NCBI RefSeq assembly: GCF_029227855.1 | Contig: NZ_CP074356.1 | DNA: 64,000 nt | Strand: one strand, 5' to 3' | Source: Escherichia coli | Lineage (GTDB): Bacteria; Pseudomonadota; Gammaproteobacteria; Enterobacterales; Enterobacteriaceae | Part shown: piece after piece, positions 12,326 to 19,300 of the stretch | How the letters are laid out: every line of letters begins with the position of its first letter | How positions within the stretch are numbered: position 1 is the first letter of the stretch | The notes under the pieces: model-generated | The model's input: only the letters and a program-made list of their open reading frames with translations | Told to the model about the DNA's origin: nothing | Database searches by the model: none | Translations under genes and position numbers: made by a program

Positions 12326-13336
12326 ATGAAGGCTGCAGTTGTTACGAAGGATCATCATGTTGACGTTACGGATAAAACACTGCGCTCACTGAAACATGGC
12401 GAAGCCCTGCTGAAAATGGAGTGTTGTGGTGTATGTCATACCGATCTTCATGTTAAGAATGGCGATTTTGGTGACAAAACCGGCGTAATTCTGGGCCATG
12501 AAGGCATCGGTGTGGTGGCAGAAGTTGGCCCAGGTGTCACCTCATTAAAACCAGGCGATCGTGCCAGCGTGGCGTGGTTTTACGAAGGATGCGGTCATTG
12601 CGAATACTGTAACAGTGGTAACGAAACGCTCTGCCGTTCAGTTAAAAATGCCGGATACAGCGTTGATGGCGGGATGGCGGAAGAGTGCATCGTGGTGGCG
12701 GATTACGCGGTAAAAGTGCCAGATGGCCTGGACTCGGCGGCGGCCAGCAGCATTACCTGTGCGGGGGTCACTACCTACAAAGCCGTTAAGCTGTCAAAAA
12801 TTCGTCCAGGGCAGTGGATTGCTATCTACGGTCTTGGCGGTCTGGGTAACCTCGCCCTGCAATACGCGAAGAATGTCTTTAACGCGAAAGTGATCGCCAT
12901 TGATGTCAATGATGAGCAGTTAAAACTGGCAACCGAAATGGGCGCTGATTTAGCGATTAACTCACGCACTGAAGACGCCGCCAAAATTGTGCAAGAAAAA
13001 ACCGGTGGCGCTCACGCCGCGGTGGTGACAGCGGTAGCTAAAGCTGCGTTTAACTCGGCGGTTGATGCTGTACGAGCAGGCGGTCGTGTTGTGGCTGTCG
13101 GTCTGCCGCCGGAGTCTATGAGCCTGGACATCCCACGCCTTGTGCTGGATGGTATTGAAGTGGTCGGTTCGCTGGTCGGCACGCGCCAGGATCTCACAGA
13201 AGCCTTCCAGTTTGCGGCCGAAGGCAAAGTGGTACCGAAGGTCGCCCTGCGTCCGTTAGCGGACATCAACACCATCTTTACTGAGATGGAAGAAGGCAAA
13301 ATCCGTGGCCGTATGGTGATTGATTTCCGCCGCTAA
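12326..13336 (+). CDS. adhP: Zn-dependent alcohol dehydrogenase (propanol-preferring)
   Basis: 336 aa from [17 protein letters not shown] zinc-binding region, GLGGLG Rossmann motif. Confidence 0.9.
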
Positions 13337-13345
13337 GAGGCTTTG

Positions 13346-13380
13346 CTGCGACTGCCATGATCGGGTCGCAGCCTGTTTTG
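13346..13380 (+). terminator. Rho-independent terminator after adhP
   Basis: Hairpin ctgcgac-tgccatgatcgg-gtcgcag followed by cctgttttg. Confidence 0.5.
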
Positions 13381-13474
13381 CGAGACGCTTTCCGCAATTT
13401 CACTCTTCTTCTTTTCCTCCCCCATCTTTCCCCTCACAATTCGCGAAAACGTAGCGAAATTTGTTGCGCTGCAC

Positions 13475-13509
13475 GGAACAATAGTGATAATGTTCCTTTC
13501 GAAGGAACA
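13475..13509 (+). promoter_or_regulatory. Candidate antitoxin operator: GGAACA-N10-TGTTCC inverted repeat plus a third GGAACA half-site, just upstream of the toxin start
   Basis: Inverted repeat read directly; placement 20-50 bp upstream of the toxin start codon matches autoregulated type II TA promoters. Confidence 0.3.
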
Positions 13510-13526
13510 AGGATGAAGAGATGATA

Positions 13527-13799
13527 ATGAATTTCAGACACAAGGGATTGCGTGACTTGTTTCTTCTCGGCAAAACCTCCGGCGTTATACCGACGCAAGT
13601 CAAACGATTACGCCACCGACTCGCTGTGATTGATGCAGCAAGCTGTCTTGCTGATATCGATATGCCCGGTTACCGACTACACCCGTTAAGCGGTGATCGC
13701 GATGGAATTTGGGCGATATCTGTCTCGGGCAACTGGCGAATCACATTTGAATTCGTCAATGGCGATGCATACATACTGGATTACGAGGACTATCACTAA
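13527..13799 (+). CDS. HigB-like (RelE/ParE superfamily) toxin
   Basis: About 90 aa basic ORF directly upstream of, and overlapping, an HTH antitoxin gene (toxin-first order typical of HigBA). Confidence 0.65.
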
Positions 13800-14083
13800 T
13801 GAAAATGGCCAATCATCCCCGCCCGGGGGACATTATTCAGGAATCACTGGACGAGCTTAACGTCAGCCTGCGCGAGTTTGCCAGAGCAATGGAAATTGCG
13901 CCCTCAACGGCAAGCCGATTGCTGACAGGAAAAGCGGCGCTCACTCCGGAAATGGCGATTAAACTTTCCGTGGTGATCGGCAGTTCGCCGCAAATGTGGC
14001 TGAATCTGCAAAACGCCTGGAGTCTGGCAGAGGCAGAAAAAACGGTGGATGTGTCGCGACTGCGCCGTCTGGTTACGCAATAA
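13799..14083 (+). CDS. yddM: HigA-like HTH (Xre family) antitoxin
   Basis: 94 aa ORF with helix-turn-helix segment [25 protein letters not shown] overlap with the toxin gene; position between adhP and fdnI. Confidence 0.65.
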
Positions 14084-14092
14084 AATAAATAT

Positions 14093-14117
14093 CCTCCGGC
14101 ATAGCCGGAGGTTTTTC
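14093..14117 (+). terminator. Rho-independent terminator after the TA operon (could alternatively be IS200 end structure)
   Basis: Hairpin cctccggc-ata-gccggagg followed by ttttt. Confidence 0.4.
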
Positions 14118-14124
14118 AAATGCG

Positions 14125-14790
14125 CCTATAAGGCTCTCTTACCAGCCGCGCCCTAACAGGCGCACACGATCTGACATTTGCATCCAACTTCGTTACTTAC
14201 GGCCCGTAAACGGGCTGCCCGGATAGGGAATCGATAACTGCTCTCCCATTTTATCCTCTTCAAGCTGGTGCTTTATGTAATCCTGTATCTTCGCCGTGTT
14301 CTTACCCACCGTATCGACGTAGTACCCTCTGCACCAGAACTCCCTGTTCCTGTATTTGAATTTCAAATCACCAAACTGCTCGTAAAGCATCAGACTGCTT
14401 TTCCCTTTCAGATATCCCATAAAGCCGGATACGCTCATTTTGGGCGGGATCTCCACAAGCATATGGATATGATCTGCACAGCATTCAGCTTCCAGAATCC
14501 GTACGCTTTTCCACTCACACAGCTTTCTCAAAATACTGCCTATTGCTCTACGCTTCTCTCTGTAGAACACCTGTCTTCGGTATTTTGGCGCAAAAACTAT
14601 GTGATATTTACAGTTCCATCGGGTGTGCGCTAAGCTCTTTTCGTTCCCCATTGGGACCCCCTTTTGATTTCTTGTTTGACACTTGCAGTTGCCAGACCGC
14701 AAAGTGTTTTAACAAATCAAAAGGGGTTTTAATAACTGGCTCAAAGCTGAAAGCTTTCCGGAACCCCCAGCCTAGCTGGGGGTTTTCTGT
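14125..14790 (-). mobile_element. IS200-family insertion sequence (boundaries approximate)
   Basis: Single Y1 HUH transposase gene plus stable hairpins in the tnpA leader (ccccc-agcctagct-ggggg around 14764-14782); no such element is expected between yddM and fdnI in K-12 from memory. Confidence 0.5.
14193..14651 (-). CDS. tnpA: IS200/IS605-family Y1 (HUH) transposase TnpA
   Basis: 152 aa from MGNEKSLAHTRWNCKYHIVFAPKYRR; HUH motif HIHMLV. Confidence 0.85.
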   Translation of the reverse strand: MGNEKSLAHTRWNCKYHIVFAPKYRRQVFYREKRRAIGSILRKLCEWKSVRILEAECCADHIHMLVEIPPKMSVSGFMGYLKGKSSLMLYEQFGDLKFKYRNREFWCRGYYVDTVGKNTAKIQDYIKHQLEEDKMGEQLSIPYPGSPFTGRK

Positions 14791-14794
14791 GCAC

Positions 14795-16388: not shown

Positions 16389-19300
16389 TTACGCCTTCTC
16401 AATGTTGACTAAGAACGCTTTATATTCCGGCGTTTGCGAGTTTGCATCACCGACATTCGGCGTCAGAGTGTTAGCGATATAACCTTTACGCGCGACACCC
16501 TCAAAGCCCCAGTGGATTGGAATACCCACCGTTTCAACCTGCTGACCGTTTACATTCAGCGGTTTCAGACGGCGCGTTACCACCGCCACCGCGCGGATAA
16601 AGCCACGCTTGCTTGAGACAGTGACACGATCGCCATTATTAATGCCTTTCGCCGCCGCCAGCGTTTCGCTGATTTCCACAAACTGTTCCGGCTGAGCAAT
16701 TGCGTTGAGCAACGCGTGCTTGGTCCAGGTGTGGAAGTGCTCGGTCAGACGATAGGTCGTACCCACATACGGGAACTGCTCTTTTTTACCCATCCGCAGC
16801 GCGTCTTGTTCATACAGACGAACCACCGGGTTAGACACCACGTTCGGATGCAGCGGGTTAGTGCCCAGCGGCGTTTCGATTGGCTCGTAGTGTTCCGGGA
16901 ACGGACCTTCCGCCATTTTGTTGATGGCAAACAGGCGTCCCATCCCTTCCGGCTGCATGATAAACGGCCCGGTTGGCGTACCCGGTGCGGCATTGCCGAA
17001 GTCAGGAATATCGTTACCCGTCCACTTGCTGCCGTTCCACTGGATCAGCATCCGTTTCGGATCCCACGGTTTACCGCTGATATCCGCCGAAGCACGGTTG
17101 TAGAGTACGCGACGGTTGAGCGGCCACGCCCAGGCCCATCCCAGCGTATTCCCCAGACCGGACGGGTCGGAGTTATCGCGGTTAGCCATCTGGTTGCCCT
17201 GCTCTGTCCAGCTACCGGTGTAGATCCAGCAAGACGATGCGGTTGTACCGTCATCACGCAGATGCGCAAAGCTACTCAGCAACTGACCTTTCTTCGCAAT
17301 CAGCACGCCATTAGCATCATAGAGATCTTCCAGCGCATAGCCGTTATTCTCTTTCGCCACTTCGTCAGACTGCGGTTCGTGCGGCTGCTTGTAGTTCCAG
17401 CTCATCTTCATCAGCGGTTCTACGCCTTTACCACCTTCGGCCTGGTACAGCTCGCGCAGATGATGGTAGATACCCGCCAGAATTTCGCCGTCGTTACGCG
17501 CTTCGCCCGGCGCATCCTGACCTTTCCAGTGCCACTGCAACCAGCGACCGGAGTTAGCGATAGAACCATCTTCTTCAGCAAAGCAGGTCGAAGGCAGACG
17601 GAATACCTCAGTCTGAATAGACGCCGGATCGACATCGTTCGACTCGCCGTGGTTCTGCCAGAAGGTAGAAGTTTCAGTCACCAGCGGATCGATAACCACC
17701 ATGTACTTCAGCTTGCTCAGGCAGCTCACCACTTTGTTTTTGTCCGGGAAGGACGCAACCGGGTTAAAGCCCTGGCAGAAATAACCGGTGACTTTGCCTT
17801 CATCCATCATGTTGAAATACTTGATGACGTCGTAGGTCTGGTCCCACTTAGGCAGCCAGTCGTAGCCCCAGTTATTCTCTTTCTGCGCGGCATCGCCGTA
17901 GAAAGATTTCATCAGGCTAACGAAGAACTTCGGATAGTTGCTCCAGTAGTTCACCTGATCAGCCAGCGTCGCTTTCGGCGTGTTCGCTTCCAGATACGAC
18001 TGCAAATCAACCTGTTTTTCTGACGGCAGCGTCAGATAACCCGGCAGGCTGGTAGAGAGCAGGCCTAAGTCGGTCAGCCCCTGAATGTTGGAGTGACCAC
18101 GCAATGCGTTCACGCCGCCACCGGCCATACCCATGTTACCGAGCAGTAACTGGATCATCGCCATAGTACGGATGTTCTGCGCACCCACGGTGTGCTGCGT
18201 CCAGCCCAGCGCGTAAAGGAAGGTGGTTGTGCGATCCGGTGCGCTGGTGGAGGCCAGCACTTCACACACTTTCAGGAAGTCGGCTTTTGGCGTACCACAG
18301 ATGTTTTCTACTACGTCCGGCGTGTAGCGGGAAACGTGCTCTTTCAGCAAGTTCCACACACAGCGCGGATGAGTCAGTGTTTCATCGCGTTTCGCATAGC
18401 CGTTTTCATCGAACTGATAGTTCCAGGACGATTTATCGTATTGACGTTTTTCAGCGTCGTAGCCGCTGAACAGACCGTCTTCGAAAGCAAAATCATCACG
18501 CACCAGCAGACTGGCGTTGGTGTAATGCTTAACGTATTCGGCGTTGATTTTGTTGTTTTCGATCAGGTAGCGCAAAACGCCAGACAGGAACGTAATGTCC
18601 GTACCGGAACGAATAGGTGCGTAAATATCCGCTACAGAAGCGGTACGCGTAAAACGGGGATCGACAACGATCAAGGTTGCATCGTTGTTGTTTTTCGCTT
18701 CCATCGCCCAGCGGAAACCGACGGGATGCGCTTCAGCAGCGTTACCGCCCATCACCATTACGACGTTAGCGTTTTTGATATCCACCCAGTGGTTGGTCAT
18801 CGCACCGCGACCAAATGTTGGAGCAAGACTTGCTACCGTTGGTCCGTGTCAGACGCGCGCCTGGTTGTCTACCGCCAGCATCCCGAGGGAGCGGGCAAAT
18901 TTCTGGGTCAGCATCCCGGTTTCGTTGCTGGCACCGGAGGCACACAGCATACCGGTAGAAAGCCAACGGTTTACCGTTACGCCCTGCTCGTTCTTTTCAA
19001 TAAAGTTAGCGTCACGGTCAGCTTTCATCAGCTTCGCAATACGGGAGAATGCTTCATCCCAGCTAATGCGCTGCCATTTGTCAGAACCTGGCGCACGATA
19101 TTCCGGGTAGCGCAGACGGTTTTCGCTGTTGACGTAATCCAGCAAACCGGCCCCTTTCGGGCACAGCGCACCACGGCTTACCGGATGATCCGGGTCACCT
19201 TCAATGTGATAAATCGCTTCTCTGGCGTTTTTCGCGCCATCACCCAGGCTATACATCAATAGCCCGCAACCTACGGAACAGTATGTGCAGGTGTTACGGA

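Follow-up and report, generated by a model that had tools for sequence, protein, structure and literature searches.

An Rts1-like, toxin-first HigB/HigA-type module between adhP and fdnI of Escherichia coli, probably repressed through two operator dyads

The window analysed here, a 64,000-nucleotide stretch of an Escherichia coli chromosome, contains in the order maeA, adhP, toxin, yddM, IS200C and fdnIHG an annotated chromosomal pair of a HigB-like toxin and the antitoxin YddM (HigA), an ordinary type II toxin-antitoxin module. We consider it likely that this module, lying between adhP and fdnI, is a type II operon of the same kind as HigB/HigA of plasmid Rts1, repressed through two operator dyads (O1 and O2) in its promoter. 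Judged from its sequence, it is probably an autoregulated chromosomal toxin-antitoxin module of HigB/HigA type with the toxin gene first, and because both genes are intact in the source strain, the module is probably active there. The locus itself was already known: RefSeq annotates both genes, the structure of the antitoxin is available in the PDB (2ICP/2ICT) and the presence or absence of the toxin has been described as a polymorphism (PMC7232551). Since these precede our analysis, its value as a discovery is small; the two-dyad operator model, with a layout resembling O1/O2 of Rts1, is a modest addition that is directly testable with a structurally solved protein. Our reading of the literature found no experimental or biochemical work on the toxin of this pair. 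The features of the locus are collected in Table 1. The name yddM is also borne by an unrelated gene of Bacillus subtilis.

Table 1. Features of the toxin-antitoxin locus and its 3' flank, in window coordinates.
Feature	Coordinates	Strand	Basis
O1 operator dyad TGTTGC-GCTGCAC-GGAACA (candidate)	13462..13480		First copy of the 20-nt repeat; one mismatch to TGTTCC-N7-GGAACA
GGAACA-N10-TGTTCC, palindrome of the first-pass annotation	13475..13496		Read as O1 right arm plus O2 left arm around the -10 region
Putative extended -10 TGaTAATGT (TG 13485-13486, hexamer TAATGT 13488-13493)	13485..13493	+	Conservation in 26 promoters
O2 operator dyad TGTTCC-TTTCGAA-GGAACA (candidate)	13491..13509		Inverted repeat; second copy of the direct repeat; exact match
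Shine-Dalgarno-like AAGGA, 7 nt before the toxin ATG	13509..13513	+	Sequence
higB-like toxin, 92 aa, WP_000605676.1 (RefSeq: 'RelE/ParE family toxin')	13521..13799	+	PF05015; alignment to 4MCT_B; RefSeq coordinates
Putative Shine-Dalgarno GAGGA of the antitoxin	13785..13789	+	Sequence; lies within the toxin gene, at its 3' end
yddM / higA antitoxin, 94 aa, WP_000781370.1, HTH Xre-type repressor	13799..14083	+	Identity to 2ICP/2ICT; TIGR02607
IS200C, outside the toxin-antitoxin module	14086..14794	-	tnpA annotation; Y1_Tnp and NF033573 matches; boundaries set by IS-free alleles

The two small, co-directional open reading frames overlap by a single nucleotide with the toxin upstream, an order that the first-pass annotation had recognized, that is evident from the listing of open reading frames and that recurs in every intact toxin-bearing ortholog examined. 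The overlap had been described as ATGA; in fact, the toxin stop codon TAA (13797-13799) and the antitoxin ATG (13799-13801) share one base, giving TAATG. An ATGA string does exist at the gene junction but does not form the overlap. The toxin start must also be moved, from the proposed 13527 to 13521, the position given by the RefSeq record, by a gap-free full-length alignment to Rts1 HigB and by the starts of the orthologs, which share a conserved ATGAT(A/C)ATG here. Nor is the toxin basic, as had been thought: its pI is 6.9, and lysines plus arginines equal aspartates plus glutamates (11 each).

The homology search that the first-pass annotation had proposed as a check on the toxin recovered the HigB family. 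Specifically, a Pfam search matched residues 4-92 to PF05015 (HigB-like; 64.4 bits, cutoff 27, E = 1.4e-17), and Rts1 HigB (PDB 4MCT_B) aligns over the full length without gaps at 56.5% identity (8e-32), a level that points to a microbial RNase (RelE) fold. The toxin retains, at the same positions, N71 as well as H54, R73, D90, Y91 and H92 of Rts1 HigB, the latter five being residues whose roles have been tested experimentally and which are critical for catalysis (PMC5027501). Two basic residues of Rts1 HigB that are not critical are altered (R48M and K57S), and because of these changes the codon preference of the toxin may differ from that of Rts1 HigB. The label 'ParE', applied to this toxin by way of CDD (PMC7232551), was rejected, given that its best family and structure matches and its active-site residues are those of HigB. 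By homology, the protein would be a RelE-fold, ribosome-dependent mRNA endonuclease that enters the ribosomal A site and cuts mRNA, with His54 as the general base, Arg73 stabilizing the transition state and the C-terminal Asp90-Tyr91-His92 triad contributing to cleavage.

The second reading frame had been called an HTH Xre-type protein, and both Pfam HTH_3 (PF01381; 7.6e-10) and the NCBIfam HigA equivalog TIGR02607 (93.7 bits, cutoff 47.7, 4.5e-27) confirm it. The protein is 100% identical over all 94 residues to HigA of E. coli CFT073, whose structure (2ICP/2ICT) was solved with neither toxin nor DNA present, and has the same accession as YddM of K-12. Residues S23, T37, S39, R40 and K45, through which Rts1 HigA contacts DNA (PMC12266136), are conserved in YddM, and its recognition helix is invariant in all orthologs compared. 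YddM, which through the PDB identity can be taken to be a stable folded HTH dimer, would neutralize the toxin by binding it and repress its own promoter. As regards such pairing, the analysis showed co-conservation of the two genes and purifying selection on both. The earlier HigBA reading of the locus is thus correct on the sequence evidence (PF05015, TIGR02607, the Rts1 HigB alignment and the identity to 2ICP/2ICT).

Upstream of the toxin gene, the GGAACA-N10-TGTTCC palindrome singled out in the first-pass annotation is indeed present as its sole match in the 64 kb, with no match in 100 shuffles, and so is the additional GGAACA half-site (13504-13509). The first-pass annotation had overlooked the fourth half-site, a degenerate TGTTGC (13462-13467). 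The whole region consists of a 20-nt unit in two direct copies 29 bp apart, each unit being itself an inverted repeat, and a search for TGTTCC-N7-GGAACA with at most one mismatch found two matches in the window, both at this promoter, with 0.15 expected by chance. The left arm of O1 is degenerate and contains a -35-like TTGCGC (13464-13469), and the arms of O2 form in this strain a perfect 8-bp inverted repeat (TGTTCCTT/AAGGAACA). As in Rts1, O2 stops 11 nt short of the toxin ATG. Transcription is predicted to start near 13499-13502, within O2. Because a generic sigma-70 scan of 13300-14250 returned no canonical promoter, it is conservation and the analogy with Rts1 that place the putative -35 and -10 elements and the predicted start of transcription. 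An alternative -10, GATAAT (13486-13491), was dropped, its second position being A, C, G or T among the orthologs and the register TGnTAnTGT being conserved.

Conservation delineates the half-sites sharply. Across 26 distinct orthologous promoters from four genera (Escherichia, Citrobacter, Buttiauxella and Cedecea), 21 of the 24 half-site columns are invariant versus 2 of the 14 columns of the within-dyad spacers, and among 100,000 random draws of 24 columns none had a mean entropy as low as that of the half-sites. In O1, TGTTGCG and GGAACA show little or no variation and the spacer is variable; the arms of O2 are kept throughout the four genera, again with varying spacers. The length of the N7 spacer is fixed in both dyads in all 26 promoters, and the stretch separating the dyads measures 10 except in two Citrobacter amalonaticus genomes, where it is 9, so this variation in spacing stems from a single lineage. 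Invariant or nearly invariant columns (T..TG.Ta.t in the 26-promoter consensus) also occur between the dyads.

The closest parallel to this arrangement is the hig operon of Rts1, a Proteus vulgaris plasmid (4MCT/4MCX, 6CF1, 9CHL/9CHN), which is likewise toxin-first with a one-base overlap, and whose toxin and antitoxin share with ours the catalytic and DNA-contacting residues listed above. After reconstruction of the Rts1 operator coordinates from the sequence of an Rts1-type plasmid and the base numbers in PMC12266136, its promoter Phig follows the same plan: two 20-nt units are 30 bp apart (29 bp here), the left arm of O1 carries a TTGC -35, the -10 abuts O2 and O2 ends shortly before the ATG. 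The bases contacted by Arg40 in O2 of Rts1, C-2 and G+7 (PMC12266136), have positional counterparts in C13496 and G13504 of our promoter, both at 4 bp from the centre of the O2 dyad. The two systems also differ. The Rts1 hig genes are plasmid-borne, whereas this pair occupies a syntenic chromosomal site (adhP-fdnI) in Escherichia and Citrobacter; Rts1 HigA has 104 residues and YddM 94, at ~36% identity; an extended -10 is proposed here, unlike in Rts1; and the half-sites read TATTACA/TGTAATA in Rts1 versus TGTTCC/GGAACA here, a difference matched by the changes T34A, A36S and V38A in the recognition helix.

Repression is most likely mediated by the two dyads, 29 bp apart, each of which would be bound by one HigA dimer. 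O1 would cover the -35-like TTGCGC, and O2 both the predicted start of transcription and the end of the extended -10. In each arm, the G located 4 bp from the dyad centre would be the contact of the conserved Arg40, and HigA on O1 and O2 would occlude RNA polymerase. The operator proposal of the first-pass annotation accordingly survives in part: its half-sites are nearly invariant across four genera, but their pairing into a single palindrome gives way to two TGTT(G/C)C-N7-GGAACA dyads, the junction of which GGAACA-N10-TGTTCC would represent. That a single HigA dimer nonetheless sits on this palindrome over the -10, with the third GGAACA as an auxiliary half-site, we regard as distinctly unlikely. 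The motif matches exactly and occurs nowhere else in the window, the -10 region lies between its arms, and all orthologs conserve both arms; yet 16 bp, or about 1.5 helical turns, separate the centres of these arms and thereby put them on opposite sides of the helix, whereas the distance is 13 bp in both the Rts1 HigA-O2 complex and the N7 dyads. Its spacer is moreover not fixed (9 in two orthologs), and it leaves unexplained the equally conserved TGTTGC (13462) and GGAACA (13504) as well as the 20-nt direct repeat. The two-dyad model has a weak point of its own, in that the left arm of O1 departs from TGTTCC and may be invariant purely on account of the -35.

Granting four half-sites, two HigA dimers might bind them cooperatively as one nucleoprotein unit, in the style of GraA or Pseudomonas aeruginosa HigA, instead of each occupying its dyad on its own, as in Rts1. 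The Pseudomonas systems GraTA and PaHigBA are, like this pair, toxin-first with a RelE-superfamily toxin and an HTH antitoxin, GraA (6F8S, 1.8e-11) and PaHigA (6JPI, 2.5e-08) are detectable homologs of YddM whose dimers cooperate on composite palindromes (PMC6987408), and here the four half-sites always occur together. We nevertheless judge cooperative binding improbable, given that Rts1 HigA, the closest characterized homolog (1.3e-18), binds O1 and O2 non-cooperatively, with a Hill coefficient of 0.87 (PMC12266136), that the palindromes bound cooperatively by GraA and PaHigA overlap whereas the dyads here are 29 bp apart, and that a 1-bp change in the distance between the dyads is tolerated. 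Far less probable still is that the inverted repeat of O2 acts as a hairpin in the 5' leader RNA, affecting stability or translation, and not as a protein-binding site in DNA. An 8-bp stem closed by a 3-nt loop can indeed form from positions 13491-13509 (-8.3 kcal/mol), shortly before the Shine-Dalgarno sequence, but its advantage over shuffles is modest (z = -1.8; 10 of 200 as good), the arms never vary and hence show no covariation, the two extra stem pairs are absent from the orthologs, the dyad itself contains the predicted start of transcription, and O1, with the same layout, forms no good stem. An Rfam search gave no match in the promoter or the toxin; its weak matches were Ysr202 at 14010-14116, far below threshold (31 bits versus a gathering score of 315), and STnc320.

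The distribution of the toxin among genomes bears on whether the module still functions. Essentially all E. coli keep YddM and its two operator dyads: of 5,426 complete genomes, 5,414 match part of a query spanning 13337-14192, mostly the yddM portion only. About three quarters of E. coli genomes, K-12 included, lack the toxin and retain the operators and an unchanged YddM. Where the toxin gene persists, it is frameshifted in ST131 and S21EC, shortened by an in-frame 9-nt deletion in strain A3 and broken in three Citrobacter genomes. It has therefore been lost in at least three independent ways (whole-gene absence, the ST131 frameshift and the in-frame deletion), and since most E. coli lack it or carry a broken copy, it is dispensable. 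These losses, together with the constancy of the YddM protein across haplotypes that carry 12 synonymous differences and its inclusion among the candidate transcription factors of a ChIP-exo study in K-12 (PMC6237786), could be read as signs of a decaying remnant, in which the toxin would be weak or unexpressed in the source strain and YddM would serve mainly as an autoregulated transcription factor or an anti-addiction antitoxin. We hold this to be unlikely for the present strain: the toxin gene is full length with every critical residue in place, the toxin protein is identical to its Escherichia albertii counterpart despite 9 synonymous differences, and dN/dS of both genes against Citrobacter orthologs is 0.04-0.11, indicating strong purifying selection that would be unexpected under neutral drift.

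In K-12, YddM (b1477) is an orphan HigA-family antitoxin: the same protein at the same adhP-fdnI position, preceded by no toxin gene, with its ATG 21 nt after O2. All four half-sites persist upstream of orphan yddM in such K-12-type genomes, and the intergenic region upstream belongs in K-12 to a divergent haplotype without a 56-nt CT-rich segment. The namesake in K-12, HigB-HigA (YgjN-YgjM), likewise couples a toxin-first RelE-superfamily toxin with an HTH antitoxin, at a different locus (the fadH-rlmG intergenic region), and we take it to represent a different sequence family; its structures are absent among the PDB matches to either of our proteins. We infer that the present pair is the same locus as TA20, described as 'ParE-2/HigA-2' in AIEC NRG857c and UPEC CFT073 (PMC7232551): the gene sizes (279 and 285 nt) and the toxin-first order agree, and K-12 and HS retain only the antitoxin of TA20 (PMC7232551). 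The name ParE was given there on the basis of the CDD superfamily, whereas sequence and active site here are those of HigB.

Immediately behind the module, IS200C begins 2 bp past the yddM stop codon. A hairpin at 14093-14111, which the first-pass annotation had included in its interval, belongs to this element and not to the toxin-antitoxin operon; as the terminal hairpin of IS200C, it now forms a terminator-like structure behind yddM. An Rfam match to STnc490 (14661-14784) also lies within IS200C.

Tentatively, the more interesting partner may be the antitoxin: repeated loss of the toxin beside an unchanging YddM is compatible with YddM having been domesticated, so that it would control its own expression and have a separate role, acting either as an anti-addiction antitoxin against plasmid HigB homologs or as a transcription factor with further targets, although we see this as a doubtful proposition; plasmids of E. 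coli and Salmonella do carry toxins about 50% identical to the one described here. For future work, K-12 hosts already express an identical YddM and carry the same operators, so that toxicity and reporter assays need a yddM-deleted background. More broadly, the locus offers a clean natural case of repeated toxin loss in which the antitoxin and its operators have been strictly conserved.

The first-pass annotation correctly identified a HigB/HigA-like pair here, with small errors of coordinates and description: the module is an ordinary, already annotated member of the HigBA family, as both genes are named in RefSeq and the antitoxin structure (2ICP/2ICT) is already in the PDB. Two open reading frames in the same direction were recovered as claimed, both intact, and the coordinates of the antitoxin frame agree. 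The toxin start, originally placed at 13527, moves to 13521 (MIMNFRHKG..., 92 aa), which is the RefSeq start; from there the N-terminus pairs residue for residue with that of HigB of plasmid Rts1, AAGGA precedes it at 13509-13513, and orthologs keep it as ATGAT(A/C)ATG. The ATGA string described as the gene overlap is present, but the toxin TAA (13797-13799) and the antitoxin ATG (13799-13801) have only one base in common. Nor is the toxin basic, with a pI of 6.9 and 11 K+R against 11 D+E residues.

Pfam PF05015 (HigB-like toxin) recognizes the toxin at 1.4e-17, and the protein aligns ungapped over all 92 residues with the solved Rts1 HigB (8e-32, 56.5% identity). Residues critical in Rts1 HigB by experiment (His54, Asp90, Tyr91 and His92, with a contribution from Arg73; PMC5027501), together with Asn71, occupy the same positions in the toxin, which differs at two non-critical basic residues (R48M and K57S). 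The antitoxin is hit by the NCBIfam HigA equivalog TIGR02607 (4.5e-27) and by Pfam HTH_3. It shares all 94 residues with the PDB 'antitoxin HigA' 2ICP/2ICT (100% identity), a protein attributed to E. coli CFT073 (PMC6987408), and it keeps the DNA-touching residues of Rts1 HigA (S23, T37, S39, R40 and K45). Given these family and structure matches and the critical toxin residues, the sequences place the pair securely in the Rts1 HigBA family.

The pair corresponds in gene sizes and order to TA20 (ParE-2/HigA-2) of AIEC NRG857c and CFT073, a locus at which K-12 and HS retain the antitoxin alone (PMC7232551), and a K-12 ChIP-exo study took in YddM, the antitoxin, as a candidate transcription factor (PMC6237786). 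A search that covered the subscription literature only in part found no published description of operators for this toxin/YddM pair.

Features of the toxin/yddM locus in the window, which is E. coli chromosomal DNA. RefSeq gene order in strain JNEC-KY178, 100% identical over 13337-14192: maeA, adhP, toxin, yddM, IS200C tnpA, fdnI/H/G.
Feature	Position	Strand	Remark
Inverted repeat	13345-13372		9 nt past adhP stop
Pyrimidine-tract segment	13374-13436		56 nt
O1 (candidate dyad)	13462-13480
O2 (candidate dyad)	13491-13509
Toxin	13521..13799		RefSeq: type II toxin-antitoxin system RelE/ParE family toxin, WP_000605676.1
Antitoxin (yddM)	13799..14083		RefSeq: yddM: HigA family addiction module antitoxin, WP_000781370.1
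IS200C copy	14086-14794		Inserted 2 bp past yddM stop codon
IS200C hairpin	14093-14111
IS200C tnpA	14193-14651	minus	RefSeq annotation
Rfam STnc490 match	14661-14784		Within IS200C
fdnG-matching ORF	16389-18800	minus	803 aa

The Citrobacter locus likewise adjoins fdnI, which marks the pair as long established in the chromosome and not newly acquired. The listed fdnG-matching frame is short, starting at an internal Met, presumably because the in-frame UGA selenocysteine codon of formate dehydrogenase-N splits the mechanical ORF. Upstream of the pair, the perfect 8-bp inverted repeat (GCTGCGAC ... GTCGCAGC, 12-nt loop) is kept in both the toxin-bearing and the K-12-type haplotype. It probably represents either a terminator for adhP or an element of REP-like type; a terminator scan made no call there. 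Downstream, the IS200C insertion is recognized from its tnpA annotation, its boundaries against IS-free alleles and the STnc490 match. Its terminal GC-rich hairpin, which falls within the interval first assigned to the pair, scores as a bidirectional terminator. In IS-free alleles, another hairpin (AAAAAATGGCACC...GCGCCATTT) comes after yddM, along with a spacer rich in repeats; this native hairpin and the ~180-bp spacer are missing from the window.

The reading that changes is that of the operator. The palindrome proposed as a single operator, GGAACA-N10-TGTTCC, is present at 13475-13496 as the sole match in 64 kb (0 in 100 shuffles), and the extra GGAACA half-site was found at 13504-13509. 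A repeat search, however, favours two dyads: two copies of a 20-nt unit lie 29 bp from each other, at 13462-13481 (TGTTGCGCTGCACGGAACAA) and 13491-13510 (TGTTCCTTTCGAAGGAACAA). Both copies are inverted repeats, TGTT(G/C)C-N7-GGAACA, the second perfect with 8-bp arms, and TGTTCC-N7-GGAACA with at most one mismatch has two matches in the window, both in the operator region, against 0.15 expected. The proposed palindrome most likely joins the right arm of O1 to the left arm of O2. Its own arms have centres 16 bp from each other and face opposite sides of the helix, a span that would probably be too wide for a compact HigA dimer. In the refined operator model, a pair of candidate dyads (O1 and O2) replaces the single palindrome.

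Orthologous loci (one genome per species plus several E. coli alleles) yielded 26 distinct promoters from E. coli, E. albertii, 12 Citrobacter genomes (2 with a broken toxin), 3 Buttiauxella and 1 Cedecea, including four toxin-less-type E. coli loci (three distinct sequences) upstream of an orphan yddM. All 26 carry TGTTGC-N7-G(G/A)AACA-N10-(T/C)GTTCC-N7-GGAAC(A/G), with an inter-dyad N9 in two C. amalonaticus genomes, and both N7 spacers are constant in length. Invariant columns make up 21 of 24 in the half-sites versus 2 of 14 in the intra-dyad spacers, and none of 100,000 random 24-column choices had a mean entropy as low as the half-sites. Because synonymous sites have diverged to saturation, or nearly so, among these genera (dS 0.6 to >1.5), the half-site conservation reflects constraint. 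The comparison establishes both the conservation and the architecture of the operator region. The inter-dyad columns retain T..TG.Ta.T, which may be read as an extended -10 (TG 13485-13486, TAATGT 13488-13493); a generic promoter scan (13300-14250) found no canonical sigma-70 site. In the 100 nt upstream of the C. amalonaticus toxin (L014 and L016), the change from N10 to N9 is the sole length change in the entire operator region, and the extended -10 register relative to O2 is kept.

A Rts1-type IncT plasmid (L001), whose higB/higA has a known promoter, also carries two 20-nt units, 30 bp apart, its O2 being GTATTACA-N5-TGTAATAC. Rts1 contacts were placed on this sequence from the base numbers in PMC12266136, which describes Arg40 contacting G-2, a minus-strand stretch T-1 G-2 T-3 A-4 and a phosphate at G+7. 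The Rts1 O2 centre maps to +3, with the contacted C-2/G+7 pair 4 bp either side; the window O2 is likewise centred on 13500, with C13496 and G13504 4 bp either side. The two systems share a 13-bp distance between arm centres, a -35-like hexamer whose TTGC falls within the O1 left arm, and an O2 that ends 11 nt upstream of the toxin ATG. Recognition-helix residues T34, A36 and V38 of Rts1 HigA are A, S and A in YddM, changes consistent with an altered half-site sequence in an unchanged geometry, and the helix is unvarying in all orthologs with TGTTCC/GGAACA half-sites. We infer that YddM would bind and repress here and that transcription would start in this region. In more distant HigB homologs (~50% identity; metagenome-assembled genomes, L031-L036), the 60 nt upstream of the toxin hold a single dyad, GTGTAACC-N5-GGTTACAC, flanked by a consensus TTGACA and a -10; it shares the 13-bp arm spacing but differs from the window in half-site and in being the only operator.

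Both genes evolve under low dN/dS against Citrobacter orthologs (0.04-0.11), and the E. albertii toxin has exactly the same protein sequence even though the genes differ at 9 synonymous positions. The toxin is nevertheless dispensable, being present in only 1,328 to 1,330 of 5,426 complete E. coli genomes; the K-12-type toxin-less intergenic haplotype occurs in at least 3,019 (coverage ≥80%). ST131 (strain 5392, L041) and S21EC (L006) have a 1-nt deletion (CGCCACC-ACTCGC) at about toxin codon 33, annotated as a frameshift in RefSeq. Spans one base short in 16 of 40 evenly spaced toxin-search rows are taken to be the same deletion, annotation having been checked for the ST131 row (H109) only, and a large fraction of toxin-bearing genomes may thus hold a toxin pseudogene. 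In strain A3 (L043) the toxin gene has lost 9 nt in frame, and three Citrobacter genomes have broken toxin genes.

YddM, by contrast, is near-universal and unchanged: the K-12 protein is the same, under the same accession, although the genes differ by 12 nucleotides in 10 codons, all synonymous. Toxin-less E. coli (L002 2361-2510 versus window 13337-13800) keep both dyads, with the yddM start 21 nt past O2, and the rest of the adhP-yddM spacer in K-12-type genomes does not simply carry a deletion but belongs to a divergent haplotype. The pyrimidine-tract segment, including a pyrimidine-only tract (CTCTTCTTCTTTTCCTCCCCCATCTTTCCCCTC), occurs only in the toxin-bearing Escherichia haplotype, being absent in K-12-type genomes and not recognizable in Citrobacter. 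HigB homologs 47-50% identical to the toxin occur on E. coli and Salmonella plasmids (H35-H37, H46) and would be potential partners for cross-talk with chromosomal YddM, which is universally present. The one mildly unusual aspect of the module is that antitoxin and operators are strictly retained in many toxin-less lineages.
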